Positions 1-38,365 of a DNA stretch of 64,000 nt are shown here, one piece after another. The notes under the pieces were generated by a model that worked only from the letters and a program-made list of their open reading frames with translations, did not search any database and had not been told where the DNA came from. The DNA is taken from the NCBI GenBank assembly GCA_002368795.1, contig DFFG01000003.1:1-64000 (forward strand). The letters are read 5' to 3'. How positions within the stretch are numbered: the stretch's first letter is position 1; each line of letters opens with the position of its first letter. This DNA comes from Eubacterium sp. UBA3782. Its GTDB lineage: Bacteria; Bacillota; Clostridia; Lachnospirales; Lachnospiraceae. The position numbers and the translations under genes were made by a program.

Positions 1-815
1 CAGAAGCCGAGGCTGCTCGTATTGCAGAGGAAGAGCGTCTGGCAGCAGAAGCCGAGGAAGCCCGCATCGCAGAGGAAGAGCGCCTGGCAGCGGAGGCCGA
101 GGCAGCCCGCATCGCCGAGGAAGAACGTCAGAAAGCGGAAGCAGAAGCAGCTCGTATTGCGGAACAGGAGAGGCTGGCTGCGGAATCGGCCCGCCTTGCC
201 GAAGAGCGAGCCCGCATCGAGGCAGAGCGCGCAGCCCTGGCTGCAGAGCGTGAGCGGATGCTGGCCGAGATCGAGGAGACCAGAAGAAAGGCTGCAGCTG
301 CAGCACCGGCAGAGAACGGGATGGGCGGCAGCACACATAGGAAGGCAGCCCGGGCGCAGGAGACCGGTCGCCGTCCGGAGGCAGAACCGGTCAGAAACGA
401 AATGGGAACGCCCGTCCGCCTGAAGTTCTGTCCGAAGTGCGGCGCGAAGATCCGGGTTGGCGCAAGATTCTGTGTCACCTGTGGTTATGCCCTGGGCGCC
501 CGTCTGGATGCAGCACCTGGACAGGGAAGCCGGACGGAAGAGAGCGGGTTTACGGTGAAGACAAAAGGGGACCTGCGTCCCCGCACCCCCAAGGAGATGG
601 GGATCGAAAATATAGATGAGACGCAGTACGCCTGGACAGAGGAGGAGCGGTCCGCCAGAGATCAGGCAGAGCAGGAGGAATTCCGCCGCATGCTTGCGGA
701 GGACCGGGCCAGAGAATACCGGCAGAGGGAAAACGCCTCCGGAGCCAGGGGCTTTCGCACCGACCGGGTCGAGCGGCTTTCAAGAGGCGGAAAACGCGGC
801 AGAAATGAAGAGTGA
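1..815 (+). CDS. 5'-truncated CDS. Coiled-coil protein with tandem 15-aa ARIAEEERLAAEAEx repeats, a C4 zinc ribbon (CPKCGAKIRVGARFCVTCG) and a charged tail
   Basis: Frame 3 is open from nt 3 to the TGA at 813-815. The ORF track reports only the internal Met at 258, but the repeat-encoding frame continues to the window edge. A 45-nt DNA periodicity is visible at about 15-200. Confidence 0.6.
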   Translation, partial: EAEAARIAEEERLAAEAEEARIAEEERLAAEAEAARIAEEERQKAEAEAARIAEQERLAAESARLAEERARIEAERAALAAERERMLAEIEETRRKAAAAAPAENGMGGSTHRKAARAQETGRRPEAEPVRNEMGTPVRLKFCPKCGAKIRVGARFCVTCGYALGARLDAAPGQGSRTEESGFTVKTKGDLRPRTPKEMGIENIDETQYAWTEEERSARDQAEQEEFRRMLAEDRAREYRQRENASGARGFRTDRVERLSRGGKRGRNEE

Positions 816-889
816 TCCGGAACCGCCTGCAGCGGAGCCAGTATGTCAGACAGAGGACAGAAACAGGAGAAAGGAACGGGGGACAGGCT

Positions 890-2131
890 ATGGCAATAGC
901 AGAAGTAATCAAATTTGAAGGTGATCCGAATCAGCTGGTGTGGAAGCACCCAGCGGAGGATTTCAACACGACATCGCAGCTGATCGTCGATGAGACCCAT
1001 GAAGCACTTCTTGTGCTCAACGGCAATGCCGCGGATCTGTTCGGACCCGGCCGGCATACGCTGACGACGAACAATATCCCGATCCTGCGGAAGCTGCAGG
1101 AGATCCCCACCGGAGGGGCAACGCCGTTTCCGTGCAAGGTCTTCTTTATCAATAAGGTCCATCAGATGGATATGCTCTGGGGTACCCAGGGCGCGATCCC
1201 GCTGGAGGATCCGCTGTACGATATCTTCATGCATGTCATGCTTCACGGAAGCATTTCGGTGTCGGTGGATGATTCCAGGAAATTCCTCCTGAAGCTTGTC
1301 GGCTTCCGTGACCGGTTTGATGCCAATACACTGGTATCCAAATTCCGCGGGATCATTTCCAGCCAGGTAAAGGATGCTATCTCCAAGATCATGATCCGGG
1401 GCCAGCTCAGCTACTTTATGATCAGCTCAGAGCTTCTGGAGATCAGCGGTGTCGTCAAGGAAAGACTGGATGAAGTCTTTGACGAGTATGGCGTCCACAT
1501 CGAGTTCTTTAACATTGAAGCCATCGAGGTTCCGGACAAGGATTATGCCGAGATCTCGCAGGCCAAAAAGCTTCGTAGCAGCCGCCTGATCCAGGGCTAC
1601 ACCTGGCAGGAGGAGCGGCAGATGATGATCGCCGAAAAGTTTGCCGGCAATCAGGGCGCCATGGGAACCATCGGCGGGATGATGGGCGGCCTGGCCGGCG
1701 GCATTGCCATGGGCAGCACGATCGCAGAGGTGGCAAAGAATGCCCTGTCTGCAGACCGGATCCCCACACAGGCGCCACCAAAGAATGTGGCCGGAGCAGC
1801 TCCGGTCATGGGAGCAAATGCTCCCGGAGCGGCTGCAGGGCAGACGGTCGACGTATCCGCATTGCTGCGTCAGGGCGCAGGCGCTGCCCCTGCCCGGCCG
1901 GAAGTCCGGGAGGAGAGGATCAGTCCGGAGCAGATGCCGGAAAGGCAGCAGATGGAGGGTTACGGCAGAGAAGGAAAATTCTGTCCGGAATGCGGAAGTC
2001 CGGTTGCAGCCGGAGCAAAGTTCTGCTCTGAGTGCGGACACAAGATGGAAAGCAATGTCTGTCCGGGATGCGGCAGTCCCATCACGCCGGGCGCTAAATT
2101 CTGTTCCGAGTGCGGGACCCGTCTCATATAA
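890..2131 (+). CDS. SPFH/band-7-like protein of the YdjI type (COG4260, virion-core-protein-like) with a Gly/Met-rich linker and a C-terminal double zinc ribbon (three CPxCG..FCSECG modules)
   Basis: The ATG at 890 is preceded by GGGGGA. The N-terminus MAIAEVIKFEGDPNQLVWKHP...LVLNGNAADLFGPGRHTL has the YdjI-like shape. The C-terminus carries CPECGSPVAAGAKFCSECG, CPGCGSPITPGAKFCSECG. The upstream GTG at 812 is an alternative start. Confidence 0.6.
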   Translation: MAIAEVIKFEGDPNQLVWKHPAEDFNTTSQLIVDETHEALLVLNGNAADLFGPGRHTLTTNNIPILRKLQEIPTGGATPFPCKVFFINKVHQMDMLWGTQGAIPLEDPLYDIFMHVMLHGSISVSVDDSRKFLLKLVGFRDRFDANTLVSKFRGIISSQVKDAISKIMIRGQLSYFMISSELLEISGVVKERLDEVFDEYGVHIEFFNIEAIEVPDKDYAEISQAKKLRSSRLIQGYTWQEERQMMIAEKFAGNQGAMGTIGGMMGGLAGGIAMGSTIAEVAKNALSADRIPTQAPPKNVAGAAPVMGANAPGAAAGQTVDVSALLRQGAGAAPARPEVREERISPEQMPERQQMEGYGREGKFCPECGSPVAAGAKFCSECGHKMESNVCPGCGSPITPGAKFCSECGTRLI

Positions 2132-2284: not shown

Positions 2285-2983
2285 ATGGCAAGAGTTACAA
2301 AAAAACGGACCGCCGGTATGATCGGCCTCATCTATCTGATTGCATTTGCAGTTTTCATTATGCTCGTTTTCTTTATCTTTAAAGACAGGAGCGGCGTCTT
2401 CTGGATGAGCTTTATCTTTGCGGTGATCGCCTTTGCCGTAAAGCTTGCCAGCACCTTCCTGGCGTTCCAGGCATTTGAAGTGGAAGCCGTCTTCTTTGGC
2501 ATTCCGCTGGCCTCGCTTTCTCTTTACTACTTTTTTGCCCAGGTGTTCTGTGCAGTCGTTTTCATGATCTTCCACAGCGCACCGGCCAAGCTGGCTTTCG
2601 CCCTTCAGGTGATCATTCTGGCAGTCTTTGCCATCGTCGCGATCATCACGCTGTTCACCAGAGATGCCATCCAGGATGTGGATGACAATATCAAGATCAG
2701 CACTACCGCCATCAAGACGATGCAGGCGGATGTGGAAAGCCTTCGCGATGCAGCAGGCGATCCGGAGCTGAAGAACCGTCTGCGCAAGCTGGCTGAGACG
2801 ATTAAGTATTCCGATCCGATGTCCAACGATGCGGTGCTGGATATTGAGGATCAGATCATGCAGTCGCTCTCTGAGCTGCGGATCTACTGTGAAGACAACG
2901 ACAAGGCAAATGCCATGCAGGCATGCAGAAACACGGAGATGCTGTTCCTCCAGAGAAACCGGACGCTCCGGGCAACAAAGTAA
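2285..2983 (+). CDS. Integral membrane protein (about 4 TM helices) with a C-terminal cytoplasmic coiled-coil segment. Hypothetical.
   Basis: Good RBS AAAGGAGAACG before the ATG. The N-terminal 120 aa are hydrophobic, followed by a charged helical tail. Confidence 0.6.
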   Translation: MARVTKKRTAGMIGLIYLIAFAVFIMLVFFIFKDRSGVFWMSFIFAVIAFAVKLASTFLAFQAFEVEAVFFGIPLASLSLYYFFAQVFCAVVFMIFHSAPAKLAFALQVIILAVFAIVAIITLFTRDAIQDVDDNIKISTTAIKTMQADVESLRDAAGDPELKNRLRKLAETIKYSDPMSNDAVLDIEDQIMQSLSELRIYCEDNDKANAMQACRNTEMLFLQRNRTLRATK

Positions 2984-2992
2984 GGACAGACT

Positions 2993-4996
2993 ATGGCTTC
3001 CAGTTACAAAAGTGTAAAATGTGACAGCTGCGGCGGTTCCCTGGTTTATTCCAGAGAAAAGAAGGTATGGATCTGCCGGTACTGCGGCAATGAGATCCGC
3101 CGGGAAGAGGAATACGACGGGCTGTATACGATCAAAAATGTCGTCCGGCAGACGATCACCGATACGGCGTACGGCAGGCTGGAGCAGGCCAGGCGCAACC
3201 TGGCCGAGTGCGAGAAGATCGATACCCGCTATGTGGGTACGCTGATCGCCAGGCTGTGCGTTCAGATGTTTACCCTGATCACGCCGGGCGAGTGTCCCCA
3301 GAGCGGGCAAAAGAGCCTGATCCGGCAGATCCGGCAGAACTATGAGGACCTGCAGAAGCTGGACCAGGGCATATCTGCAGAGGAAGAGGCGCTCTACGAA
3401 TCCTTCGACGGGAACGCAGATGTCTTTGCCGTTCTGGTCGTTGTGTTTGATTCCCTGGGCGACCGGGTGCATAAGGAATTTGCCGAAAACCTTCTGGATG
3501 CGGCAAAAGTATATTCAGAGCGGATCAATGACAGCCTCCTTCGGTATGCGATGCGCAGCAAAAAGCTGGAGCTGGCTGACCGGATCCTGGATAATGTGGA
3601 CAACATCCCCTGCAGGGCTGCTTTGCTGACCGTCCTTGCGGAATATCCGGATGGCGATAGCAAGCGGCAGCATGTGCGGGATCTGTTTCCGCGTGCCGGC
3701 CTTTCAAGGGATGAGAGAAAGGCAGTCGAGGGTTATCTGAAGACCACAAAGGACTGTCCGGAGACAAAGACAGCGGTCTATGCCGCCGGCGTCGAAGCTG
3801 GTGTACCGGCATCGATCACCTGTGTGGAGGAATATCTGCTGAAGGATCTCGGAGGCAGGATCGAAGACGTCCGAAAAGTGATCCGGCTGATCGCACAGGC
3901 AAAGCCGAACGATGCGGAGCTCTACCGGCTGATCACAGCGATCTTTACCGGACACAGCTTTCCGGTGGCCCAGGCGGAGCTTTCCGAGCTGGCATCCTCC
4001 GGATTGTATATCGTGGTCAACCCATCGGATATCCTCCGGATGCTGTCCAGACAGGAGCTTTCCCTTGATGAACGGCTGGCGCTGGTCGATCTGGCCCATC
4101 AGTTTAACAGCGACGCCCGCACAAATGATACGATCCTGGCAGAATATCTGAACCGGAACCGGGATGCGGCCGATATCCGTATTCCGGTGATCGAAAAGCT
4201 GCTCACCTATGTCCGGACGATCGCAACCGCGACGCTCAGCGAGTATGTGATACGGGTAACGACCGATGGGAAGCGAAAGCCCGAGGTCCTATCCAGGATC
4301 CTCGAGCTTGACCTGAACATGAGCTTTTTCCGGAGTCTGATGCAGCAGTACATGGCCGGATCCCAGGATCCGCCGGATGTAAAGGCAGAGATAACGGCGC
4401 TGCTTGGGCGCGCCGGGCTGACGGTCGATGCCGGCACGCTGCTGGATATGGCCTGCAGCTGCACACAGGAAAATGCCCTGGAGACGATCAACCTCGTCAA
4501 CCGGATGAAGCAGAGCGGCGTGCATATGCGGAGCGACGCACTGAGCATTTACTTGGAGAAGGCGGCGGGACGGCAGTATTATGCCGGGCTGATCTCCGCG
4601 CTGTATACCGAAGGATGCATCCTGTCCGGAAGGGCTGTGGCAAACTATGTGCTCTATGCCCGGATGAATGAGGAGGTAAAGCTCCGCAATCTGGAGACCT
4701 TTCTTGCAGCCTGCAGTGAGCCGGCAGGCAGCATAGCGGTTACCGTCAGTCATCTGGGACACCGGGTCGACTGCAGTCTGCTGCAGGCATACGTGCTGAC
4801 GGCAGGAGAAAGCCTCCCGACGGCCGGTCGGATCACCGACATGCTGAAGAGTACCGGTGCAAAGCTGAATGCAAACATCCAGGTGGACCAGGCAAATATG
4901 AAATTCAAAAAATACATCATGGACAACCGTCCGCAGCTTGGCGGCCAGACAGAGGCGCTGTGTGCGGACAACAAGGTGTTTTCCATGTTTTTCTAA
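2993..4996 (+). CDS. Hypothetical 667-aa protein with an N-terminal C4 zinc ribbon (CDSCGGS...CRYCGNE) and a large all-helical domain
   Basis: Uninterrupted ORF starting 9 nt after the previous stop. The cysteine pairs sit at the extreme N-terminus. Confidence 0.6.
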   Translation: MASSYKSVKCDSCGGSLVYSREKKVWICRYCGNEIRREEEYDGLYTIKNVVRQTITDTAYGRLEQARRNLAECEKIDTRYVGTLIARLCVQMFTLITPGECPQSGQKSLIRQIRQNYEDLQKLDQGISAEEEALYESFDGNADVFAVLVVVFDSLGDRVHKEFAENLLDAAKVYSERINDSLLRYAMRSKKLELADRILDNVDNIPCRAALLTVLAEYPDGDSKRQHVRDLFPRAGLSRDERKAVEGYLKTTKDCPETKTAVYAAGVEAGVPASITCVEEYLLKDLGGRIEDVRKVIRLIAQAKPNDAELYRLITAIFTGHSFPVAQAELSELASSGLYIVVNPSDILRMLSRQELSLDERLALVDLAHQFNSDARTNDTILAEYLNRNRDAADIRIPVIEKLLTYVRTIATATLSEYVIRVTTDGKRKPEVLSRILELDLNMSFFRSLMQQYMAGSQDPPDVKAEITALLGRAGLTVDAGTLLDMACSCTQENALETINLVNRMKQSGVHMRSDALSIYLEKAAGRQYYAGLISALYTEGCILSGRAVANYVLYARMNEEVKLRNLETFLAACSEPAGSIAVTVSHLGHRVDCSLLQAYVLTAGESLPTAGRITDMLKSTGAKLNANIQVDQANMKFKKYIMDNRPQLGGQTEALCADNKVFSMFF

Positions 4997-5033: not shown

Positions 5034-6800
5034 GTGACGCAGGAAGAATACGAGGCTGAGCAGGCCGAAATAGAATCGTTGATTAATCAGATCAATGCGC
5101 TGATCGCCGAAAACAACCGGCTGATCGATGAGATCAACAATGCACTGCATAATATTCAGATCCTGAAGAACAACGTCGGCGTGCTGGGCAGAAACATCGA
5201 GCCCAAGATGCGCAGCGTTTCCGGAGAAGTGGAGCTTGACGCAGACAAGACAAAAGCTGTCAGCAATGCGCTCCAGGAGATGACCGAACAGTACTTTACG
5301 TTCAAGACCCTGTCCTCGGCATCCAAGAATCTGTCCCAGTATACGGACGAGTATTATGCGAAATACCAGCATTACAACAAGCTCCGCCGGATCGCTCTTG
5401 GCTATGTGATCGGGCTGGACAACAATTTTGTTTCTGATGAGACCCTGCGCAAGGAGGTCGAGAAGATCTACCTCCAGAACACGGAATACTGGCTCGCCTA
5501 TGCGGCATCGGCCGTCATGCTCTGGGCCAGCGATGAAAAAGAGGCGGCAAAGCGTGCGCTGGACAAAGCCATTTTCATGGACGAGACCAAGGCCAGCCTG
5601 TATTTCATGCTGATCAACCTCCGGTTTGGCAGGGACAAGGTTGCCAGAGAGTGGTTCCTCTACTACATGGAGCGTGTGGATTCCGGCCATCTTCCCGAGG
5701 ACTGGAAGTATCTTCTGCAGGCCTATCTGACCGGAACCTTCGGGACAGATCCCGAATTCCAGAAGCTGGTCGCGACACGGATGAATGCCATGCTGGCCAA
5801 GGAGGAGGCCACAACGGTCGACTTCGGGAAAAAGTTCAGCAGCCGGGCGTACCAGTACATCGATACGCATCTGCACACCACCAGGGAGGCCTTCCCCTAC
5901 CTGAAACAGACCTGTGCGGATCATGGCCAGATGATGGAGATGCTCTCCGACGCAGAGAAGAATGCGGTCATTGCCGCCTGGTACAATGCGCTGGCCGAGG
6001 AAAAGGACGAGCAGTCCGGCTTCATCGCCCAGAGGATCGAGAATGTTCTTTATGCGCTGGTCAGCAGCTATGATGACGGAGAGCTGGAGATCGTCAAAAA
6101 GATCCGCTACAACGACTGTATCCTGACGGCAAAGGGCGATGTGGCCAGAGCCCAGGAAAAATACGAGCTGGAGTTCCCGCCAAAGAAGAGGACGACCTTT
6201 GGGGATCTGCTGGCAGACTGGGCTTTCCAGGAGGACAGCAACCTGACGCCGCTGCTGATCCGCCGGTTCGCCATCGATCTGATGAAGGACTGGATCTTCA
6301 AGGGCTACGAGCAGTTCAACCGTGACAATCTCCAGAAGGAGAAGAAGGAATACACCTTTGATATCGACGGCTGCGAGGTGACCACATCAGAGACCGGATA
6401 TGAACGGGCAAAGACCAGGGTCGACCAGTTTTTTGAGAAGAACAAATGGAAGAGCATAACCGCCGACAAATTCGCGCTGATCTTTATGCTGATGAGTGTA
6501 TGCGGTGTGCTTCTTTTGGGCATCATGGCAGTTACGGCTGTCGGCGCCCATGGATTTGGCACAGGAGCGAGGATCGCTCTGGTTACCGGTATCCTGCTGG
6601 TCCTTGCGGGTGTATTCCTGCTATGGCGGCGTATCGTAGAAGTGCTGGCGGCACTCCAGGAAAAGAAGCGGCTCGCTCTGCAGAAGCTGGCCCACTCCCT
6701 GGAGGAGCTGGGCAGATGGCGCGAGCTGTTCCATAAAGAAGCAGACAGGATCAGTGATCTGGAGAGGGCCGTGAGCGAATTCGGTCCATCCGCGCGGTAA
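5034..6800 (+). CDS. Paralog A of a triplicated family. It has an N-terminal coiled coil, a conserved core (YWLAYAASAVMLW...LINLRFGRDKVAREWFLYY), a C-terminal two-helix membrane hairpin and a short coiled tail.
   Basis: GTG start at 5034 with GGAGGG 7 nt upstream. The protein aligns by eye to the products of 6816-8417 and 10693-12390 over about 120 aa. Confidence 0.65.
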   Translation: MTQEEYEAEQAEIESLINQINALIAENNRLIDEINNALHNIQILKNNVGVLGRNIEPKMRSVSGEVELDADKTKAVSNALQEMTEQYFTFKTLSSASKNLSQYTDEYYAKYQHYNKLRRIALGYVIGLDNNFVSDETLRKEVEKIYLQNTEYWLAYAASAVMLWASDEKEAAKRALDKAIFMDETKASLYFMLINLRFGRDKVAREWFLYYMERVDSGHLPEDWKYLLQAYLTGTFGTDPEFQKLVATRMNAMLAKEEATTVDFGKKFSSRAYQYIDTHLHTTREAFPYLKQTCADHGQMMEMLSDAEKNAVIAAWYNALAEEKDEQSGFIAQRIENVLYALVSSYDDGELEIVKKIRYNDCILTAKGDVARAQEKYELEFPPKKRTTFGDLLADWAFQEDSNLTPLLIRRFAIDLMKDWIFKGYEQFNRDNLQKEKKEYTFDIDGCEVTTSETGYERAKTRVDQFFEKNKWKSITADKFALIFMLMSVCGVLLLGIMAVTAVGAHGFGTGARIALVTGILLVLAGVFLLWRRIVEVLAALQEKKRLALQKLAHSLEELGRWRELFHKEADRISDLERAVSEFGPSAR

Positions 6801-6815: not shown

Positions 6816-8417
6816 ATGTCAAATGTTTCCGGTGCAATACAGGAGCTGAACGAGACGATCAACTCCTTTGAATCAAAGGTCGACGTACATGTACAGAATA
6901 TTCACCAGTCCAGCGTAAACGTGGATGCTGCTGCAGACCGGATCTACCAGAAGATCGTGCAGTTCCGGCAGGATATGGAGCATGGCGAGCAGAAGCAGCT
7001 TGCCCATGAGAACATCATCCGTATCGACCAGATCATCAAGGAGCAGTTCAGCAATTACGAGACGATCCGCCGTACCGTCATGGGCGTTGTGAGGGACTTC
7101 GATATCAATCTTGTCCGCAACACGACGATCCAGGAGCTCTCTGAGGAGCTCTGGATCACCAGCTCCCGCTACTGGCTGTCCTATGCGCTGATCGCCATCA
7201 CCGCATGGGTAAACAATTACCCGGAGGTGGCAAGAAACGCGCTGGCTGAGAGCGGACGGAAGGATGCCGTCAAGACGACGCTGTTTTTCTGCCTTCTCAA
7301 TCTGCGCTTCAACCGGATCGATACGGCGAAAAGCTGGTTCTATGAGTACCTCAAGACCCTGGATCCGACGATGCTCCAGCAGGAGACGGCTGTCATGCTG
7401 CAGGCGTTTCTCGCAGGGATCTTCGGCAAGGACCAGGAGCTGCAGCATGCGGTGATCGATGTCATCGACCAGTGGATCTCCATCATCAATGAGAGCCAGG
7501 AGATCTGCGATGAGCTGGTCGGCTCCTACGAGAGCTATATCCGCAACATCAATCCCATGGTCGACTTCAATTACGAGGCGATCCTTACCTACTGCACCAA
7601 TGCGGAGGAGCTGAAGCGCTCCTTTACCGATGTGTCGAAATACGCCAGCATTCTGGATCTTTTGGATTCCCTGAATGTGCAGGAGGTCACCCAGAGCAAC
7701 GACAACTATGCCGAGCGTGTGGATGCCGTGCTGATGAACCTGATCTCCAACTATGATGCAGAGGAGCTGGATCTTCGGAACCAGCAGGAGTATTTCAACC
7801 TGATCGTCCGCAACGAGGGACAGGTCGACCGTGCCGAGGCCCAGTATGCGGAAGAGATGGCACTGCAGAATGAAAACTTCAACATCGGCAAGCAGATGAT
7901 CAAATGGGCGATCTATGATGACAACGACACAACAGATCCCCATGTGCGCAAGTTCGGCTTCCAGAACACCAAACAGTGGTTCAAGAGCGCGCTGGACCGG
8001 TTCAGCGTATCCCTGCAGCAGCAATTCCCCATCGAGTATAATCTGTCCATCGACACCTGGACCGGTACGAGCAGCGGGGATGACCAGGAAGAGCTGACCG
8101 AGAACATGCGCAGCTACTTTGAGACAAATAAGTTCCACAATATGTATGTCAACACCATCAACATCGCCGCGCTGATCGTACTGATCGCATCTCTGGGCCT
8201 TGCGTTTGTCACGCTGTATGCCCTGGTCGCTTCCGTCGCGGCGGCGGCCGTACTGATCTACCGGGTCATCAAGGCAAACAAGGAATATCCGGCAAGAGTC
8301 AATGCGGCTCTGGAGGCGTTAAACCAGACGCTGCTGGAGATCGCCGACTTCCGGGATTACTTCGCGCAGTGCAGCCTGCAGAAGGATGAGATCCTCTCCA
8401 CCGTGGAATTCATCTGA
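6816..8417 (+). CDS. Paralog B of the triplicated family (core YWLSYALIAITAW...LLNLRFNRIDTAKSWFYEY, C-terminal TM hairpin)
   Basis: RBS GGGGGGAAG before the ATG. It shares the motif order with paralogs A and C. Confidence 0.65.
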   Translation: MSNVSGAIQELNETINSFESKVDVHVQNIHQSSVNVDAAADRIYQKIVQFRQDMEHGEQKQLAHENIIRIDQIIKEQFSNYETIRRTVMGVVRDFDINLVRNTTIQELSEELWITSSRYWLSYALIAITAWVNNYPEVARNALAESGRKDAVKTTLFFCLLNLRFNRIDTAKSWFYEYLKTLDPTMLQQETAVMLQAFLAGIFGKDQELQHAVIDVIDQWISIINESQEICDELVGSYESYIRNINPMVDFNYEAILTYCTNAEELKRSFTDVSKYASILDLLDSLNVQEVTQSNDNYAERVDAVLMNLISNYDAEELDLRNQQEYFNLIVRNEGQVDRAEAQYAEEMALQNENFNIGKQMIKWAIYDDNDTTDPHVRKFGFQNTKQWFKSALDRFSVSLQQQFPIEYNLSIDTWTGTSSGDDQEELTENMRSYFETNKFHNMYVNTINIAALIVLIASLGLAFVTLYALVASVAAAAVLIYRVIKANKEYPARVNAALEALNQTLLEIADFRDYFAQCSLQKDEILSTVEFI

Positions 8418-8484: not shown

Positions 8485-8694
8485 ATGGAAAACGAATTCG
8501 GATTCAATGCATATGAAGAGCAGGACGGACAGGACAATCAGATGTCGGATTTTGAGTCCCTGATGGCGGAGCGTATTCAGTCCAACTTCGCGGCAGAGAG
8601 CGGAAGCCTTTCGGCGACGGATGAGCGGCTGCAGGAAATGAACAAGCGGCTGCCGGACTGGAGCCTTGAGCCGCCCTACAGCTTCCTGAAATAA
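8485..8694 (+). CDS. Small acidic protein of 69 aa. Hypothetical.
   Basis: RBS AAAGGATAG before the ATG. It lies in an operon context between paralog B and the next gene. Confidence 0.45.
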   Translation: MENEFGFNAYEEQDGQDNQMSDFESLMAERIQSNFAAESGSLSATDERLQEMNKRLPDWSLEPPYSFLK

Positions 8695-8697
8695 ACA

Positions 8698-9180
8698 ATG
8701 ACAGCAAAGGCACCTTCAAATTATCAGGAATGGATGGCCATTATGGACGCCCTTGCGGAGGGCAGGTCCGGACCCGAAAGCCTTTCCCTGATGGAGGAGG
8801 GGACGCTGCCGGAGGGCGCGTATGTCACCGGCCGTTTTCAGCAGCGGGTCACCGATACGGTCAACCGGATGCTCCGGCGGAGCATCCGCCGTTTTGAGCA
8901 GCGCTTTTCGGAGGCCCTTTCCGAGCGGGGGACAGACACTGTGCAGCTTCTTCTTGCACGGCTGCATAAGGAGCTTGCCCTGTGCTTTTTCTTCCGAAGG
9001 ATGCCGTTTCTGGATGAATGCTTTCGAAATGAGCTGGAGACTGCCCTTTTGGGGGAGATCCGGAAATTCTGGAGGCATGAGATCCGGGAGATCCGGCGCC
9101 TTGCCGAGCTGCCAGGCCATGCAGAACTTGAGGAAGTCATGTATTCCATGAAGCGATTCGCAAAGGAATACGGAGAGTAG
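8698..9180 (+). CDS. Hypothetical 160-aa helical protein
   Basis: Starts 4 nt after the previous stop, suggesting translational coupling. Uninterrupted frame, same strand. Confidence 0.5.
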   Translation: MTAKAPSNYQEWMAIMDALAEGRSGPESLSLMEEGTLPEGAYVTGRFQQRVTDTVNRMLRRSIRRFEQRFSEALSERGTDTVQLLLARLHKELALCFFFRRMPFLDECFRNELETALLGEIRKFWRHEIREIRRLAELPGHAELEEVMYSMKRFAKEYGE

Positions 9181-9181
9181 G

Positions 9182-10696
9182 ATGGGAAATTACAGCACGA
9201 CCAAAACCGAAATTAAAAACTATATCTTTGCCAGGGTGCCCCTCATCATCATTCAGTCGGCCGAGCGGGCCAGAGTGGAGCGGATGATCGCTGAGACAGC
9301 CAGGGAGATGCGGATCGAGGTGACCTGCTACTCGGATACAAAGCAGATCTACCGCCCGGGCCAGGACACGATCCGGGATGTGGAGAGCGATCCGATCCCC
9401 TTTGCCATGGAGCTGCTTCGCCGCAAGAGGGGAACGACCTTTGTGCTGGCAGATGTGCGCAGGGTCAGTGAGGAGAACCTGTACAGTCGGGAGATCGTCA
9501 ATCTCCTGTATCTGGCCGCAGAGATGGGAGGCACAGTGATCCTGATCACGCCGGATCCTGTGTGGGCAAGGATCGCCCGGATGGGCATGCTGACCAGGCT
9601 CGATCTTCCCGATATGGATGAGCGGACCGCCGAGATCCGTGAATTCGTCCGGCGGTATGGTTCGCGGTATTCCATCGCCTGGGATGAGAACGATATCCAG
9701 CGCGCATCTGCGCTCCTGAGGGGATTTACAGAGATCCAGATCGACAACATCCTGTCTTCCGCGCTGGTGGAAAACGGCGCGCTGGACCGGCGGCATATCT
9801 ATGAGCTGACGAGCCAGAAAAGCCGGATGTACGAGGCAGCCGCAGGCGTCCAGGAGGTCAGGGTCAGCGGGGACCTGCGGATCTCAGGCCTGGACAACCT
9901 GAAGCAGTGGCTGGCAGAAAAGAAGAGGATCTTTTTTGCATCAGAGGAGGAGCTGGCCGCGCGCGGCCTGCAGACGCCAAAGGGGATCCTTCTGGCCGGC
10001 ATCCCGGGATGCGGAAAATCCTTCTCCGCCCGGATGGTTGCCAGAGAGTGGGAACTTCCGCTGTTCAAGTTCGATATCGGCAGCATCTACGACAAATGGG
10101 TCGGAGAGAGTGAGCACCGGATGGCGGATGCCCTGCAGTTTATCGACAATGTTGCGCCCTGCATCGTATGGATCGATGAGATCGAGAAGGCTCTTTCGGT
10201 CTCGGACAGCAGCAACGATACCGGGCAGCGGGTGCTGGGCCAGTTCCTGTTCTGGCTTCAGGAGTCATCAAGCCGCGTATTTCTCGTGGCAACGGCAAAT
10301 GACATCCGAAAGCTGCCGCCGGAGCTGTTTCGCAAGGGCAGGTTCTCGGAGATGTTCTTTGTCGATCTGCCGACAGCAGTCGAGCGGGCGGAGGCCATCA
10401 CCCAGTACATGGAACAGTGCCTGCACAGGACGCCCGACGCGGGCAGCCTGCAGGAGCTGGTTGGAAGAACAAAGGGATTTTCCTATGCGGATATTGAATA
10501 TATGGTAAAGGAGGCTGCCCAGAAGGCACTTCTTTACGGGGATGATGCGGTCAGCAGCGATATGCTTCTGGAACTGACAGAGAAGGTCATCCCGTTTGCA
10601 GATACCAATCCGGACGTGGTCTCCCAGCTGAGAAGCTGGGGAAATTCGCGGGCAGCCGCAGCGTCGCTTCCGGAGAAGGGAGGAAATGAGGCATGA
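9182..10696 (+). CDS. Classical-clade AAA+ ATPase. The N-terminal ~230 aa look like a degenerate ATPase-like domain. The C-terminal module has Walker A GIPGCGKS, Walker B IVWIDEIE and an SRH ([29 protein letters not shown]).
   Basis: Motifs read directly from the translation. The KWVGESE segment after Walker A resembles the Vps4/spastin/katanin-type KW(M/V)GE(S/G)E. The stop overlaps the next start (ATGA at 10693-10696). Confidence 0.75.
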
Positions 10697-12390
10697 GCGA
10701 TATAGGCAGCCTGAGGGCAGAGCTGGCCAGGCAGGAAAGGATCAATGCGGAGCTGCGCAGCGATCTGTGGGAGCTGGAGAGCGGCGTCAGCAGCGCACAC
10801 AGCCGGCTGAATGAATTCCAGAATAAGACGAACAACACGCTTTCCGGAAGCACACAGCGGATGATCAGCTCTCATAACCGCATCGTGGAGGCCTACGAGA
10901 TCCAGGGCGAGATCGACCATCTGTATGAGCGCTTCAAGCAGGTCGAGCTGGCCAACAAAAAGATCCGTGCCTGCAACAATAAAAAATATTACGAGTTTGC
11001 CAATTACCGTACCGTGCGTAAGCTGGTCCAGGGCATCATGGACAATATGGACATGAACATGGTCTCGGATGAGGTGATCTACAAGTCGGTGGAGAAACAG
11101 CATCTGCAGACCCCAGACTACTGGCTCACCTGTGTGCTGATCAGCATCATGGCCTGGAAAAATGACGACAGGGAGCTGGCAGAACGGGCCATGGCCCGGG
11201 CGATCTCGCTGGACAAGAAGGACAGCGCGATCTTCTACATGCTGTTCCACCTGCGTCTGGGCCGTGAGGAGACGGCGCTCAAATGGTTCTATCTCTATCA
11301 GGAGTGCGACCTGAAGGGCAGCGATGAGCAGACCTTCCTGCTGCTGTTTTCCCTCATGACCAAGACCCTGGATGATTTCGTGGATGATCATACCAAGTAT
11401 GAGATCTACAGCTTTATCAACAAGGTGATCGCCATGAGTGCAAGATCGGCCGGCTTCTCCGAGGAGGAGATCATCCGGCAGATCGAAAACTATCTGATCG
11501 CCATGAAAGACACCGACAACCTTCAGCTCAATCTGCTGAAGCGGTGCATGGACGATTACGGCGAGATCGCCGAGACAGTGATCCTCGCTGAAAACAACAA
11601 AACGATCCTGCAGTTCCTCATGGACGTACGCAGCGTCACGGAGATCGAGAGAAACGCCTACATCAGCAAATTCATCGACGATGTGATCGCAAAGCCGAAC
11701 CAGACCGAGCAGGAGGTCTACGATGAGATCGAATACAACGAGTGCATCATCCGGTGCGACGGCTATGTCGACCAGGCAAAGGAGATGTACCTGAAGGAGC
11801 AGGAGCGCCGGAAAAAGGAGCTGAATCTCATCAAGGAGATGGTCCGCAGGGTGTACGAGAGCTCAGGTGAAGAGGTCAACGGACAGGTCAAAAAGAACAT
11901 GTTCGTCCTGACCGGAGGCCTGCAGCGGAAGGCGATCAGCCGTTATGCCGAGGATTACCGGTCCAGGGTGACAGATGTGCATCCGGTCTCTCTGGGAGAG
12001 TACAGGACGACCGCCGATTTCCGGGATCAGGCCGGCGAGCAGCGGAAGATCGAAGAATACTACGAAACCCAAAAGGCAGAGCAGCTGGCCCAGGTCAAGG
12101 ACTGGCCCGCCTTCGTCGGCTTTGCTCTGGCCGTCGCCTGTGCAGCAGGCGCAGCCTTCGTAAGCCTTATGCTGCTGGCAGGCACCGCGCTTGGACTGAT
12201 CTTCGGCTTCGTACGGCTGCTGATGAACAGCCGGCAGAGAAAGCAGATCGCCAGTGACTGTGCAGTCAATATCAGCAGCAAGACGGATCTTCTCGACCGT
12301 CTCTTTGCAGAATACGAGCAGCTAAAGACTATCTTTTATGAATACGATGCCTACCAGGAGCAGATCGCTGCCGAACTCGGCAAGTTCTGA
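10693..12390 (+). CDS. Paralog C of the triplicated family (core YWLTCVLISIMAW...LFHLRLGREETALKWFYLY, C-terminal TM hairpin)
   Basis: Start overlaps the AAA+ gene stop. Same motif order as paralogs A and B. Confidence 0.65.
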   Translation: MSDIGSLRAELARQERINAELRSDLWELESGVSSAHSRLNEFQNKTNNTLSGSTQRMISSHNRIVEAYEIQGEIDHLYERFKQVELANKKIRACNNKKYYEFANYRTVRKLVQGIMDNMDMNMVSDEVIYKSVEKQHLQTPDYWLTCVLISIMAWKNDDRELAERAMARAISLDKKDSAIFYMLFHLRLGREETALKWFYLYQECDLKGSDEQTFLLLFSLMTKTLDDFVDDHTKYEIYSFINKVIAMSARSAGFSEEEIIRQIENYLIAMKDTDNLQLNLLKRCMDDYGEIAETVILAENNKTILQFLMDVRSVTEIERNAYISKFIDDVIAKPNQTEQEVYDEIEYNECIIRCDGYVDQAKEMYLKEQERRKKELNLIKEMVRRVYESSGEEVNGQVKKNMFVLTGGLQRKAISRYAEDYRSRVTDVHPVSLGEYRTTADFRDQAGEQRKIEEYYETQKAEQLAQVKDWPAFVGFALAVACAAGAAFVSLMLLAGTALGLIFGFVRLLMNSRQRKQIASDCAVNISSKTDLLDRLFAEYEQLKTIFYEYDAYQEQIAAELGKF

Positions 12391-12504
12391 CAGGCCAAAG
12401 GATCCAGCCAGGACGCCGAGGCGTTCTTTAACCGAAGAACAGAAGCCTGGCGGAGAGAAAAACGCAACTCTTATGAAACGTTCATATTATGAGGAGGTAA
12501 CACC

Positions 12505-13026
12505 ATGAACGAAGTAATCAAGACATTGGAAACAAGAAGAAGCTGCCGGAATTTCAAGGATGATCCCATTCCCGAGGAGATTCTTGCACAGATCATCGAG
12601 GCAGGAACCTACGCCGCCACCGGCATGGGCAAACAGTCCCCGATCATCCTGGCCATCACAAATAAAGAGGTAAGAGATAAGCTGTCCGCAATGAACGCAC
12701 AGATCCTTGGCGCAAAGATCGATCCCTTCTACGGCGCACCGGTGATCCTGGTCGTCCTTGCCAAAAAGGATGTGCCCACCTACCAGTACGATGGCAGCCT
12801 TGTCATGGGCAATCTGATGAACGCAGCAAGATCCTTAGGGATCGCCAGCATCTGGATCCACCGGGCAAAAGAAGAGTTTGAGAGCGAAGAGGGCAAGGCA
12901 CTTCTTGCCAGCCTTGGCATCGAAGGCGAGTACGAAGGCATCGGCCACTGTGCACTCGGCTACGCCGCAAAAGCTCCGAAAAAGGCAGCTCCCAGAAAAG
13001 AGAATTACGTCTATTACATCCGCTGA
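12505..13026 (+). CDS. Nitroreductase-family NAD(P)H-dependent oxidoreductase
   Basis: The N-terminus TLETRRSCRNFKDDPIPEE is the nitroreductase signature. RBS GAGGAGG before the ATG. Confidence 0.75.
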   Translation: MNEVIKTLETRRSCRNFKDDPIPEEILAQIIEAGTYAATGMGKQSPIILAITNKEVRDKLSAMNAQILGAKIDPFYGAPVILVVLAKKDVPTYQYDGSLVMGNLMNAARSLGIASIWIHRAKEEFESEEGKALLASLGIEGEYEGIGHCALGYAAKAPKKAAPRKENYVYYIR

Positions 13027-13066
13027 CAGGCAGAGCCTTCAGAGGATCTTATCCATCAGTCATGAA

Positions 13067-13106
13067 CAGGCAGACATCTGTTGACAAGGCAGATGCCTGC
13101 CTTTTA
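13067..13106 (+). terminator. Hairpin GGCAGACATCTG...CAGATGCCTGCC followed by TTTT, downstream of the nitroreductase gene
   Basis: Inverted repeat with one mismatch, followed by a T-run. Confidence 0.45.
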
Positions 13107-13110
13107 TAAT
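13081..13110 (+). promoter_or_regulatory. Sigma-70-type promoter for metA: TTGACA, 18 nt spacer, TATAAT. The -35 box lies in the loop of the upstream hairpin.
   Basis: Consensus hexamers at 13081-13086 and 13105-13110, about 27 nt upstream of the metA start. Confidence 0.5.
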
Positions 13111-13136
13111 TTTGAATCAAATGGAGGTGATGCATT

Positions 13137-14060
13137 ATGCCGATCAAGATACAGCAGGACCTGCCCGTCCGTGAGAAACTGGAAGAAGAAAATATATTCG
13201 TTATGGACGAGGACCGCGCCCTGCATCAGGACATCCGCCCGCTGCAGATCCTGATCCTCAATCTGATGCCGCTCAAGGAAGCGACAGAGCTGCAGATCCT
13301 GCGCTGTCTGTCCAACTCCCCGCTGCAGGTGGATGTAACCTTCATGATGGTCACTTCCCACATCGTAAAAAACACATCCGTCAGTCACATCAACAAATTT
13401 TATGTGACCTTCAACGAGATAAAGAAAAAATACTTCGACGGCATGATCATCACCGGAGCACCCGTAGAATTCTACCGTTTCGAGGAAGTCGACTACTGGG
13501 CAGAGCTGACCATGATCATGAATTGGGCCGACAAACACGTGACATCCACCATGTACCAGTGCTGGGGAGCACAGGCCGCACTCTACTACTATTACGGCAT
13601 CCCCAAAAAACTTCTGGACCACAAAATGTTCGGATTGTTCGAGCACAAAGTCAACAACCGCCGCATCCCTCTGGTCCGCGGCTTCGATGACGTATTCATG
13701 GCACCCCATTCCCGCCACACCGAGGTCAATTTGGATGACATCCGCAAGGTAAAGGAGATCACCATCCTGTCAGAATCCGACGAAGCAGGTTTTTTGCTTG
13801 GCATGGCCAAAGAAGGACGCAGGATCTTCGTCCAGGGACATCCCGAATACGACAGGCTCACTCTGGACGCAGAATACCATCGCGACCTCGACAAATGCCT
13901 GGAGATCCAGATGCCCAAAAACTACTACCCAGGCGATGACCCCAACCAAAAGCCCATGCTCACCTGGCGGTCCATGTCCACCAATCTCTACAACAACTGG
14001 CTGAACTTCTACGTTTACCAGACGACTCCCTACGATCTCTACGGAGCACCTTCATTTTAA
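13137..14060 (+). CDS. metA: Homoserine O-acetyltransferase (MetA family)
   Basis: The classic MPIKI..DLP N-terminus and the ILNLMP...IITGAPVE motifs. RBS GGAGGTGA. Confidence 0.85.
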   Translation: MPIKIQQDLPVREKLEEENIFVMDEDRALHQDIRPLQILILNLMPLKEATELQILRCLSNSPLQVDVTFMMVTSHIVKNTSVSHINKFYVTFNEIKKKYFDGMIITGAPVEFYRFEEVDYWAELTMIMNWADKHVTSTMYQCWGAQAALYYYYGIPKKLLDHKMFGLFEHKVNNRRIPLVRGFDDVFMAPHSRHTEVNLDDIRKVKEITILSESDEAGFLLGMAKEGRRIFVQGHPEYDRLTLDAEYHRDLDKCLEIQMPKNYYPGDDPNQKPMLTWRSMSTNLYNNWLNFYVYQTTPYDLYGAPSF

Positions 14061-14099
14061 ATCCGCTGCTTACGCAGAGAAACGTTCCACCCAGAGAAG

Positions 14100-14189
14100 A
14101 AGCCCCTCCCGGGGAAAGACATTAAAGCGAACAATCTGCAGGCCGAAGGCCGAAGCCGTTCGCGTAATGCCTTTCCCCGGGAGGGGCTT
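14100..14189. repeat. R1 element, copy 1. A nested three-stem hairpin repeat with a variable 19-bp outer stem, core ACATTAAAGC(G/A)AACA.TCTGCAGGCC..GGCCGAAGCCGTT(C/T)GCGTAATGCC.
   Basis: Near-identical core also at 26466-26556 and 54549-54623. Outer and inner stems carry compensatory changes. Confidence 0.7.
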
Positions 14190-14202
14190 TAATAACGGAT
14201 CT

Positions 14203-14247
14203 AAAAATGTGCAAAAGGGTGGGGACACTGCAAATGCAGTGTCCCCT
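14203..14247 (-). terminator. Intrinsic terminator for the MFS gene (GGGGACACTGCA aat TGCAGTGTCCCC plus a T-rich tail on the minus strand)
   Basis: Perfect 12-bp stem. The minus-strand downstream sequence is ACCCTTTTGCACATTTTT. Confidence 0.6.
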
Positions 14248-14289
14248 GGTGTTATGCGTTTATGGATGTGTTTACATCTATGAGATGGC

Positions 14290-38194: not shown

Positions 38195-38365
38195 TAACTG
38201 ATCTTCAGGGCGGGGTGCAATTCCCCACTGGCGGTAAAGTCCGCGAACCGAAAGGCCGAACCGGTGAAACTCCGGTACCAACAGTACAGTCTGGATGAAA
38301 GAAGATACCAAATTTGTTTTTAAATTTTGCAATGCCCTGGATCTTTGATTCGGGGCATTTTTCTG
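38195..38365 (+). promoter_or_regulatory. FMN riboswitch (RFN element) with an intrinsic terminator expression platform
   Basis: CTTCAGGGCGGGGTGCAATTCCCCACTGGCGGTAAAGTCCGCGA...GGTGAAACTCCGGTACCAACAGTACAGTCTGGATGAAAGAAGAT matches the RFN consensus. Terminator ATGCCC..GGGGCAT TTTTT at about 38330-38362. Confidence 0.85.

Follow-up and report, generated by a model that had tools for sequence, protein, structure and literature searches.

Ycf46 is an AAA protein of cyanobacteria and red-lineage plastids, and Ycf46-like ATPases are conserved in plastids, cyanobacteria, Actinomycetes, Proteobacteria and Firmicutes; we know of no substrate or mechanism for them. The FtsH-HflK/C system exemplifies the cooperation of SPFH proteins with AAA machines. 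Ycf46 has been tied to KaiC, to CO2 utilisation and to a stress operon (bioRxiv 10.1101/2025.07.21.665879). These roles are inapplicable to an anaerobic gut Clostridium. SPFH proteins also accompany Vps4 systems in archaea (PMC10936438), and in B. subtilis the soluble SPFH protein YdjI, which carries a low-complexity linker and a zinc finger, recruits PspA, with YdjI recruitment requiring membrane proteins (PMC8581546). An "inactive AAA + AAA" ATPase was described by Ravi et al. (2024, mSystems) beside PspA or a divergent Snf7, as in AEY64320.1 of Clostridium sp. BNL1100, and the architecture was found in Firmicutes and many other phyla (PMC11237479).

Here we analyze an ATPase gene in the first 64,000 nucleotides of contig DFFG01000003.1 (forward strand; the window) from Eubacterium sp. 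UBA3782, a member of the Lachnospiraceae. Its architecture, two classical AAA modules of which the N-terminal copy is inactive, is already noted by Ravi et al. 2024 (PMC11237479), as judged from the published description of AEY64320.1. The operon context of the ATPase appears to be new. Unlike in the published case, a jackhmmer search with E. coli PspA against all ORFs of the window and of 80 genome loci centred on the AAA gene (L001-L080) gave no match, and no PspA or Snf7 homolog was found there; the partners of the ATPase form a new TPR-like/hairpin family. The clostridial cassette ties one Ycf46-like branch to fixed partners: three membrane-anchored paralogs (here parA, parB and parC), a pair of small proteins and an SPFH protein of the YdjI type.

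Architecture of the ATPase

The features of the cassette and its ATPase are collected in Table 1. The second half of the ATPase (D2) matches Pfam AAA (PF00004) over residues 269-395 (E 6.9e-29) and AAA_lid_3 (PF17862) over residues 423-458 (E 1.3e-6), and it carries the features by which a classical AAA module is recognized, namely Walker A and B, a sensor-1 Asn, a two-arginine SRH and an AAA_lid_3-type lid, in which a G(F/Y)SGADI-like segment, GFSYADIE (residues 432-439), takes the place of a sensor-2 arginine. All catalytic and translocation elements are retained (K279, D332/E333, the aromatic pore-loop residue W306, sensor-1 N373, R384 and R387), and conservation of G273-S280, D332/E333, N373 and R384/R387 exceeds 90% across a diverse set of 59 family members. 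The top matches of D2 in a PDB sequence search are VAT/CDC48/NVL/Afg2. A hydrophobicity scan of the ATPase revealed no real TM segment, consistent with a soluble protein.

Table 1. Cassette genes and ATPase features, with positions in the window.
Feature	Position	Strand	Residues	Description
SPFH gene	812..2131	+		Band_7_1 E 7.9e-36, Zn_Ribbon_1, DZR
4-TM protein	2285..2983	+		232 aa; about 4 TM segments and cytoplasmic helical tail
Zinc-ribbon protein	2993..4996	+		667 aa; soluble, N-terminal CxxC...CxxC, large helical body
parA	5034..6800	+		588 aa; coiled coil, TPR-like helical domain, two C-terminal TM segments, amphipathic helix
parB	6816..8417	+		533 aa; best-conserved paralog
69-aa protein	8485..8694	+		Conserved ORF; the gene calls of the public contig include it
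160-aa helical protein	8698..9180	+		Directly upstream of the AAA gene
AAA gene	9182..10696	+		ATG start, 504 aa
D1, degenerate AAA module	9182..9841	+	1-220	Alpha/beta subdomain 1-143, lid 144-220
N-terminal segments cited in the initial annotation			19-36 and 84-95	Located in the translation
D2, active classical AAA module	9878..10591	+	233-470	Pfam AAA and AAA_lid_3
Walker A GIPGCGKS	9998-10021	+	273-280	Motif mapping
Pore loop 1 KWVGESE	10094-10114	+	305-311	Motif mapping
Walker B IVWIDEIE	10163-10186	+	328-335	Motif mapping
Sensor-1/SRH	10286-10345	+		FRKGRF, residues 383-388; SRH arginines R384/R387
Lid of D2	10397-10591	+
C-terminal segment and stop codon	10592..10696	+	471-504	Family-conserved P(F/L)...LR.W motif
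parC	10693..12390	+		565 aa; architecture as parA/parB, membrane hairpin ~471-512

The first half (D1) is a full AAA fold minus the P-loop: QSAERARV stands where the P-loop would be, with D91 as a Walker-B remnant. When D1 was searched by sequence against the PDB, no match was obtained at E values up to 10, and its nature as an AAA fold is revealed only by profile and fold comparison. Because the P-loop is lost, canonical ATP binding by D1 is not possible. The first half of the ATPase is a burnt-out copy of the second. The initial annotation had read a canonical C-terminal module with FRKGRF and an inactive D1 joined to an active D2; the Pfam match and the SRH arginines bear out the first of these points, and the profile and fold comparison of D1, together with the intact motifs of D2, the second.

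Placement within the classical AAA proteins

From the pore loop KWVGESE, held to be nearer to Vps4, spastin and katanin than to FtsH or proteasomal equivalents, a meiotic-clade affinity had been proposed, which would make the ATPase a meiotic-clade disassemblase recognizing the paralogs through MIT-MIM-type contacts. The heptad does not bear this out, since it is identical in Thermoplasma VAT D2 and variable within the family, other members of which carry SLVGESE, KFFGETE, GVVGSSE or SYVGQSE; the equivalents in p97 are KLAGESE (D1) and MWFGESE (D2). A KW(V/L)GESE pore loop is no marker of the Vps4/katanin clade, and a tempting mis-assignment is thereby corrected.

Per-domain phmmer scores of D2 against references of PDB-verified identity were 86.6 bits for VAT D2, 80.2 for FtsH, 74.0 for p97 D1, 73.6 for p97 D2, 66.8 for VPS4B, 65.7 for PAN, 56.9 for spastin and 47.0 for katanin; spastin and katanin score lowest of the nine classical references, and VPS4B comes sixth. 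The SRH segment LLRKGRF(D/S)E aligns with RPGRFD of FtsH, PAN, p97 and VAT, including a two-residue xG insert at whose position VPS4B, spastin and katanin have a two-residue gap. The phylogenetic placement that the initial annotation had called for was obtained from a neighbour-joining (NJ) tree of the AAA module (252 columns, 200 bootstraps, nine references, one outgroup), in which the meiotic trio of VPS4B, spastin and katanin groups at 99% to the exclusion of the family, whose D2 branches outside a cluster made up of FtsH, p97 D1/D2, VAT D1/D2, PAN and the meiotic trio. By this simple tree of nine references, in which its D2 is monophyletic with 100% support, the family is probably a separate lineage of classical AAA proteins.

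Pfam detects no MIT domain in the ATPase, the N-terminus of which is an AAA fold, and no Vps4_C match; the P(F/L)...LR.W segment does align with the Vps4_C region, but it aligns likewise with p97 D2. A search for a MIT-interacting motif in the paralogs had been suggested; a scan of all operon proteins gave no MIM1-like motif. The NJ tree, the phmmer scores and the SRH indel rule out membership in the meiotic clade, and a disassemblase of that clade is highly improbable.

Assignment to other named families fares no better, as NCBIfam scores lie far under the respective cut-offs (CDC48 TIGR01243, 98.5 vs 802.65; FtsH TIGR01241, 93.2 vs 600; PAN, 87 vs 500; CdvC, 85.5 vs 650). The initial annotation had set its proposal against a housekeeping protein that lies within a clade such as FtsH and has orthologs outside this operon; full-length relatives are indeed found outside the operon context, but the family does not fall within FtsH, CDC48 or PAN. 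The nearest solved relatives by sequence are CDC48/p97/VAT (E 1e-44), with which the ATPase shares a two-tier arrangement, and VAT D2 in particular combines the best per-domain score with the identical heptad and an RxGRF SRH. Unlike these proteins, however, the family has no double-psi-barrel N domain, its D1 lacks the P-loop, it branches outside p97/VAT, and the MDG inter-subunit signalling motif is replaced by W(L/M)QE with a two-residue deletion. It differs from FtsH in having neither N-terminal TM segments nor an M41 peptidase.

Conservation and composition of the cassette

The core order parA-parB-69aa-160aa-AAA-parC is kept in about 20 Clostridia genome loci (L001-L020, L026) spanning Oscillospirales, Lachnospirales and Christensenellales, and a reduced cassette is found in Streptococcus oralis. 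The cassette occurs commonly in metagenomes of gut and rumen Clostridia. Of 61 metagenome loci centred on a paralog, 60 have AAA downstream of parB, at a distance of up to 2.5 kb; in the exception (L162), two paralogs are followed by housekeeping genes, with no AAA within 10 kb. In the window, GGAGAG stands 7 nt before the ATG of the AAA gene, 1 nt separates this gene from the stop of the 160-aa gene, and its own stop overlaps the parC start (ATGA), a layout that indicates translational coupling to both neighbours. A promoter and terminator scan of the operon gave no informative internal signals. Conserved order, near-constant adjacency and coupling support the functional tie to the neighbouring coiled-coil paralogs that had been put forward earlier, and the near-constant neighbourhood with three related membrane-anchored proteins suggests an undescribed membrane-associated machine.

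The ATPase might instead be a stand-alone general chaperone, its adjacency to the paralogs incidental, as would fit the Oceanospirillales relatives and a second Christensenellales copy that adjoin housekeeping genes (coq7-like, galE-like, tex). Against this, AAA is immediately downstream in the same 60 of 61 loci, the order is fixed across Clostridia orders and reaches Streptococcus, and coupling occurs on both sides. An incidental position of the ATPase is very unlikely, and a stand-alone chaperone is hardly credible.

Genes for the SPFH/zinc-ribbon, 4-TM and zinc-ribbon proteins often lie upstream of the core. The SPFH gene is an accessory upstream member of the operon; its product is soluble and YdjI-like, with an Ala/Gly/Pro-rich linker, a C-terminal double zinc ribbon and no TM-like segment in a hydrophobicity scan. 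The public gene call starts this gene at 888 (413 aa). The 232-aa membrane protein, with hydrophobic segments within residues 7-130, matches nothing in Pfam, NCBIfam, PADLOC or PHROG and has syntenic orthologs at 33-62% identity, and the 667-aa zinc-ribbon protein, for which Pfam, NCBIfam and PHROG give no significant family match, has orthologs at 23-52% identity; among the 42 metagenome loci with enough upstream DNA, 40 carry one upstream of parA.

The paralogs match no known family, and PHROGs are blank for the partner proteins of the ATPase. In parA, orthologs of which are present at all operon loci, the coiled coil is N-terminal, the amphipathic helix C-terminal, and TM-like segments fall in 475-541; identity to parB and parC is 22-26%. 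The parB protein, 47-79% identical across orders, consists of a long N-terminal helix, TPR-like repeats, a helical domain, a beta-hairpin, a membrane hairpin (~442-487) and a 50-residue C-terminal helix; Roseburia hominis is among the carriers of an ortholog. The 69-aa protein is acidic in its N-terminal part and carries a C-terminal motif that looks invariant, LPxW(S/N)LEPPY(S/N)F(L/I)(K/R), and orthologous ORFs of 70-90 aa occupy the same position in nearly all metagenome loci; it is possibly an adaptor or ligand. This ORF was absent from the initial annotation. The 160-aa protein, a candidate cofactor of the ATPase, has orthologs at 20-40% identity and no family match in Pfam, NCBIfam, PADLOC or PHROG; at the same position of the Streptococcus locus stands a 155-aa CDS with a weak match to it (24% over 62 residues, E 2e-5).

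Proposed mechanism and alternatives

The reading that we favour, with a probability of about 50%, is that a soluble Ycf46-like two-module AAA+ protein acts on a membrane-bound assembly of the paralogs and that the cassette is a membrane maintenance or stress device; that the partners are membrane-bound and the ATPase soluble counts for it. By analogy with other classical AAA proteins, the ATPase would form a stacked hexamer in which the dead D1 ring may serve as an assembly or docking platform, like NSF D2 and Pex1/6 D1, and the threading of polypeptide would fall to the pore of the D2 ring. The products of parA/B/C, with large cytoplasmic coiled-coil/TPR-like bodies held to the membrane by the C-terminal hairpin, would form a hetero-oligomeric complex for the ATPase to assemble, remodel or recycle, with the 160-aa and 69-aa proteins as putative adaptors and the SPFH protein as a putative membrane scaffold. 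It is plausible that the ATPase remodels the paralogs or works with them; for the disassemblase activity proposed at the outset, they are candidate substrates.

A membrane device of this kind would be analogous, not homologous, to PspA/YdjI or ESCRT-III/Vps4. The likeness to Vps4/ESCRT-III lies in an ATPase possibly acting on a membrane-bound helical assembly with an SPFH protein nearby, and in a similar pore loop and C-terminal segment; the differences are an ATPase outside the clade, with no MIT or Vps4_C match in Pfam, and partners that, as modelled, do not have the ESCRT-III fold, the structural model of the paralog resembling generic TPR proteins only and neither ESCRT-III nor PspA. Like PspA-YdjGHI, the operon includes a protein of YdjI architecture, encoded by its first gene, but the cassette has neither PspA nor a TPM-domain YdjH.

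In its most specific form, the machine would be an undescribed remodelling or repair device in which the three paralogs build a lattice on the inner membrane face, scaffolded by SPFH, and a Ycf46-like unfoldase with a dead D1, targeted by the 160-aa and 69-aa proteins, disassembles or recycles it. We hold this lattice possible, and tentatively so. Were it true, the cassette would match ESCRT-III/Vps4 or PspA in function while consisting of unrelated components, and it would provide the first concrete substrate class for the Ycf46 family.

An alternative is a membrane quality-control motor, in which the paralogs are not substrates but anchors or adaptors that recruit the ATPase via their TPR-like domains, other proteins are extracted or unfolded, and access is controlled by SPFH, in the manner of HflK/C with FtsH or of the membrane adaptors that serve Cdc48 and Msp1. 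In its favour, the ATPase is soluble, the paralogs join membrane hairpins to a conserved TPR-like, typically peptide-binding, domain, the SPFH protein is encoded at the operon head, D2 is most like VAT/CDC48 D2 and FtsH, and the motor is reused with other partner sets. The cassette contains, however, no protease and no obvious client detectable by Pfam or NCBIfam, and three conserved paralogs in fixed order, one of them coupled to the ATPase, look stoichiometric rather than like a simple anchor. It further differs from FtsH-HflK/C in that the ATPase is soluble and of another lineage. We regard such a motor as somewhat doubtful.

Comparison with defence models brings in a conflict or anti-phage system, with an IetA-like ATPase that senses or licenses membrane-acting hairpin paralogs and with variable cargo inserted in the cassette. 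The top PADLOC models of the ATPase are IetA (E 6.9e-28), and NCBIfam IteA scores 79.6 bits; phrog_8638 matches residues 137-499 (E 5e-88); and relatives occur in radical-SAM/WD40/Hsp70 sets of conflict-system style. The gap between the zinc-ribbon gene and parA exceeds 3 kb in 31 of 40 metagenome loci, and genes for a C39-like peptidase and an HD_4 protein are inserted there, 5' of parA; a RelA/SpoT-like domain considered for a large inserted protein (cluster c34) was discarded, Pfam showing a weak Peptidase_C39_2 match only. The record "Streptococcus satellite phage Javan368" has a reduced module at its end. Yet the IteA score is far under the 510-bit cut-off of NF042959, no other operon protein has a meaningful PADLOC match, and Pfam finds no IetS-type protease in the cassette. 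IetA has a single, similarly diverged classical AAA module; its models, of ~260-395 positions, match D2 only, and the PADLOC match reflects the shared AAA module only. Moreover, the window neighbours of the cassette are housekeeping genes (nitroreductase, metA, MATE, UvrD), the paralogs are unusually conserved, and neither parB nor the N-domain had a relative in pattern scans of IMG/VR. A known defence system was rejected on weak IetA, TRIP13 and ZorA-tail matches, the only ones from PADLOC, and a phage-borne cassette on the blank IMG/VR scans and a single full-length match in phage GenBank records, at the edge of the Streptococcus satellite record. On balance, an anti-phage role is unlikely. 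Given how common the cassette is in metagenomes of gut and rumen Clostridia, involvement in either membrane homeostasis or phage conflict would matter for the physiology of abundant gut commensals.

Relation to Ycf46 and relatives in other settings

D1 alone matches a relative (P0265) at E 2.4e-21 and retrieves full-length proteins of 489-530 aa. The 90% cluster of this relative includes WP_020511526.1, with the UniRef name "Uncharacterized AAA domain-containing protein ycf46", and it is through this automatic cluster name, rather than an alignment to cyanobacterial or plastid Ycf46, that we classify the ATPase as Ycf46-like. The proteins have in common a length of ~500 aa, a non-P-loop N-terminal half and an AAA module in the C-terminal half. 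Some relatives of the ATPase adjoin genes for DUF2997 (L037) and DUF1257 (L048), small proteins of a type that we take to be the partners in cyanobacterial ycf46 operons. DUF1257 is the Ycf35 family (PMC4284462). The Eubacterium locus differs in having neither a DUF1257 nor a DUF2997 gene, its partners being the three membrane-anchored paralogs.

Besides the DUF2997 or DUF1257 set, full-length relatives are found in a radical-SAM-like/HEAT-WD40/GrpE-like/Hsp70 set and among housekeeping neighbours. Such different contexts point to a generic motor with exchangeable partners. When 50 operonic neighbours of distant relatives were scanned with Pfam, WD40 models dominated the output.

Domain architecture of the ATPase

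The ATPase reading frame opens with ATG, encodes 504 aa and contains every protein string quoted in the initial annotation, which had proposed an inactive N-terminal AAA module (D1) followed by an active C-terminal one (D2). Pfam matches are confined to the AAA domain (PF00004, E 6.9e-29, residues 269-395) and AAA_lid_3 (residues 423-458). D2 is intact and has an aromatic pore loop; its catalytic residues are complete and more than 90% conserved across a 59-member family alignment.

Residues 1-230 have no match in Pfam, NCBIfam or PDB sequence searches. The family alignment (members 30% to 70% identical) was divided at residue 232, and the resulting N-domain profile aligns with the D2 profile in hhalign (95.6% probability, E 1.1e-8), pairing residues 99-197 with the D2 sensor-1 strand, second region of homology (SRH) and lid; the 'DLP...ER' lid start is common to both. 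The AlphaFold2 model of residues 1-233, built from a 93-sequence alignment (pLDDT 86.5, pTM 0.79), has its strands and helices arranged in AAA+ order, with a four-helix lid. The segment after D1 beta1, QSAERARV, has neither a Gly-rich loop nor a Lys, and few D1 positions are conserved across the family, D91 (a Walker-B remnant) and P143 among them. The profile match, the modeled fold and the missing P-loop thus identify D1 as a duplicated AAA module that is dead, and the inactive-D1/active-D2 arrangement stands.

Features of the operon (nucleotide positions in the window) and of the ATPase (protein residues)
Feature	Position	Strand
YdjI-like soluble SPFH protein with double zinc ribbon	812-2131	+
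4-TM protein	2285-2983	+
Zinc-ribbon/helical protein	2993-4996	+
Paralog A	5034-6800	+
Paralog B	6816-8417	+
Conserved 69-aa protein	8485-8694	+
160-aa helical protein	8698-9180	+
ATPase	9182-10696	+
Walker A, GIPGCGKS	residues 273-280	
Pore loop, KWVGESE	residues 305-311	
Walker B, IVWIDEIE	residues 328-335	
SRH arginines within FRKGRF	residues 383-388	
Paralog C	10693-12390	+

The protein has more than 5,900 database matches, the best 120 of which are all about 500 aa long, 57-100% identical and named 'AAA family ATPase' at most. More distant proteins, related over their full length and 30-35% identical, come from Actinomycetes, Oceanospirillales, Bacillales, Chloroflexota, Planctomycetota and other groups. 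Searched by itself, the N-domain retrieves 125 clusters (50% identity level, E up to 1e-3), among them full-length proteins of 489-530 aa; the 90% cluster of one such relative (P0265, E 2.4e-21) contains WP_020511526.1, named 'Uncharacterized AAA domain-containing protein ycf46' in UniRef. The two-module architecture is already known, since Ravi et al. 2024 (PMC11237479) describe an 'Inactive-Classical-AAA+Classical-AAA' protein. The ATPase is of a known, uncharacterised kind: Ycf46-like, with an inactive D1 and an active D2.

Mycobacteriophage 'AAA-ATPase' genes and one Aeromonas phage gene match residues ~137/181-498 at ~32% identity, and phrog_8638 (unknown function) matches residues 137-499 (E 5e-88). 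These matches cover the D1 lid and D2, so a shortened version of the family is present in phages.

Placement among AAA clades

The best PDB matches of the whole protein are VAT, NVL, Cdc48, Afg2 and p97 (E 1e-44), and the NCBIfam models differ little in per-domain score, all falling far short of their cut-offs (CDC48 98.5, FtsH 93.2, PAN 87.0, CdvC 85.5, IteA 79.6). Reference AAA modules were checked against PDB entries: VPS4B (1xwi), spastin (5z6q), PAN (3h4m) and p97 are identical to theirs, and katanin p60 matches 5zql apart from the E-to-Q mutation of that entry. FtsH and ClpX were taken from E. coli K-12, and VAT D1 and D2 from the PDB-search output. In a neighbor-joining tree of AAA modules (252 columns, 200 bootstraps, ClpX root), the family D2 is monophyletic (100%), all nine references group together without it (100%), and the meiotic trio of Vps4, spastin and katanin is united at 99%. 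The phmmer bit scores of D2 are highest for VAT D2 (86.6), FtsH (80.2), p97 D1 (74.0), p97 D2 (73.6) and VAT D1 (72.5), and lower for VPS4B (66.8), PAN (65.7), spastin (56.9), katanin (47.0) and ClpX (16.8). The family SRH, LLRKGRFDE, carries an xG insert as in RPGRFD-type proteins, which the meiotic trio lacks, and the reference alignment shows no MDG inter-subunit motif in the family and a conserved C-terminal P(F/L)...LR.W segment. Together, the tree, the scores, the insert and the missing MDG motif place the protein in a classical AAA lineage of its own, neither meiotic nor FtsH/CDC48/PAN, as judged by a simple method with few references and one outgroup.

KWVGESE had been taken as a sign of Vps4/spastin/katanin affinity. 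The heptad is identical in VAT D2, and the pore-loop sequence varies within the family; with D2 outside the 99% meiotic clade, the SRH insert and the lower scores, the Vps4-like reading is rejected as a claim of membership.

The operon and its membrane-anchored partners

Gene linkage between the ATPase and its partners is tight and reciprocal, with translational coupling: a single nucleotide separates the upstream stop from the ATPase start, which is preceded by GGAGAG, and the ATPase stop overlaps the paralog C start (ATGA). Housekeeping genes lie downstream of paralog C. The ATPase is soluble and its partners are membrane-anchored. Paralog B has 652 homologs, none named and none with a Pfam domain; its model (pLDDT 78.9) shows an N-terminal helix of roughly 95 residues, TPR-like repeats plus one more helical domain, a beta-hairpin, a hydrophobic hairpin (residues ~442-487) and a C-terminal helix of 50 residues. 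The 69-aa frame between paralog B and the 160-aa gene, which the initial annotation does not list, recurs in this place at nearly every related locus, and the C-terminus of its product, LPxW(S/N)LEPPY(S/N)F(L/I)(K/R), looks nearly invariant; speculatively, the TPR-like domain of the paralogs could take this free peptide as a ligand.

The SPFH protein shares its SPFH/low-complexity/zinc-finger architecture with B. subtilis YdjI, which is recruited by membrane proteins and required for PspA foci (PMC8581546). In some archaeal loci, Vps4 is accompanied by SPFH/coiled-coil/zinc-ribbon proteins (PMC10936438).

A large frame at 1-815 (+) continues upstream beyond the window start (877 aa in a public contig with gene calls) and encodes a protein with a zinc ribbon close to its C-terminus and repeats of EAEAARIAEEERLAAE type; these are highly charged and probably form a single alpha-helix or a coiled coil. 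The stop codon of this frame overlaps the GTG at which the SPFH frame starts (812), ~70 nt before the publicly called start (888). Cassettes at other loci have no conserved counterpart of this gene upstream.

Conservation of the cassette

The order paralog A, paralog B, (69-aa gene), 160-aa gene, ATPase, paralog C is kept in ~20 genome loci of Oscillospirales, Lachnospirales and Christensenellales. Reverse queries with paralog B retrieved 80 metagenome loci; the ATPase lies downstream within 2.5 kb in 60 of the 61 with enough downstream DNA, and the zinc-ribbon protein upstream in 40 of the 42 with enough upstream DNA. The sole exception among the 61 (L162, 1-3162), a contig that begins at paralog A and is informative on its downstream side only, has two divergent paralogs (37-40% identical to A and B) directly followed by nifS/nifU-like genes and tRNA synthetase genes (metG-like, gltX-like); the 10 kb downstream contain no ATPase gene. 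The fixed association of a Ycf46-like ATPase with a new membrane-anchored paralog family seems undescribed so far, and provides a practical handle on the function of such ATPases.

The gap between the zinc-ribbon gene and paralog A exceeds 3 kb in 31 of 40 metagenome loci (~5 kb where inspected, among L093-L165). At three genome loci (L011, L014, L020) it holds genes for a large acidic-repeat protein with a weak Peptidase_C39_2 match (E 8e-5) and an HD_4 (RelA/SpoT-type hydrolase) domain protein (E 7e-9), an insert absent from the window's cassette. Streptococcus oralis has a reduced cassette: a single paralog-like coding sequence (24% identical to paralog B, E 8e-39), a 155-aa one in the position of the 160-aa gene (a weak match, 24% identity across 62 residues, E 2e-5) and the ATPase at 36% identity. 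In Streptococcus satellite phage Javan368 (MK448457.1), the last four coding sequences (9674-14257) specify a paralog-like protein of 573 aa, a weakly matching 154-aa protein in the 160-aa position, an ATPase homolog that is full-length and 36% identical, and a truncated product; the module is either satellite-borne or host DNA inside the predicted satellite boundary. The C39-like/HD_4 insertion in many loci, the Javan368 record and a weak IetA similarity of the ATPase would fit a conflict system, a reading opposed by the housekeeping genes flanking the cassette, the high conservation of paralog B and pattern scans of IMG/VR, which gave no relative of paralog B or of the N-domain.

Proposed function and other contexts of the motor

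We propose that the ATPase forms a stacked hexamer in which D1 would serve as docking or assembly ring and D2 would thread substrate. The paralogs may form a hetero-oligomer at the membrane, whose assembly, remodelling or recycling would be the task of the ATPase, with the 69-aa and 160-aa proteins as putative adaptors and the SPFH protein as a possible scaffold. The earlier suggestion of a disassemblase acting on the paralogs is reasonable but only a proposal; alternatively, the ATPase could be a quality-control motor at the membrane, with the paralogs as its anchors.

The motor is evidently modular and re-employed with differing partner sets. In Chloroflexota, Planctomycetota and Verrucomicrobia its neighbors are radical-SAM-activase-like, HEAT/WD40, GrpE-like and Hsp70 genes; HEAT/WD40 (~700-900 aa), GrpE-like (~175 aa) and Hsp70-like (~530 aa) proteins recur beside distant full-length relatives at eight loci (L049, L050, L058, L059, L063, L065, L067, L077), some with a radical-SAM-activase-like (Fer4_12) protein, in what looks like a separate uncharacterised system. 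Brevibacillus and Paenibacillus combine the ATPase with a TM protein, a radical-SAM-like protein and a DUF2997 protein, one candidate-phylum MAG with DUF1257 and TPR genes, and Oceanospirillales relatives have housekeeping neighbors. Five Christensenellales loci (L021-L025) hold a full-length copy (35-36% identical) without paralogs nearby, several between galE-like and/or tex-like housekeeping genes; MAG MGBC129052 holds both a stand-alone (L023) and an operon copy (L016). In the tree, the stand-alone copy L024 joins L016, the operon copy from Christensenella, at 100%, a grouping that suggests a lineage-specific duplication that left the cassette.

The one Rfam match in the window that passes the gathering threshold is an FMN riboswitch (RF00050; 109.9 bits, E 1.1e-24) at 38197-38310 (+).
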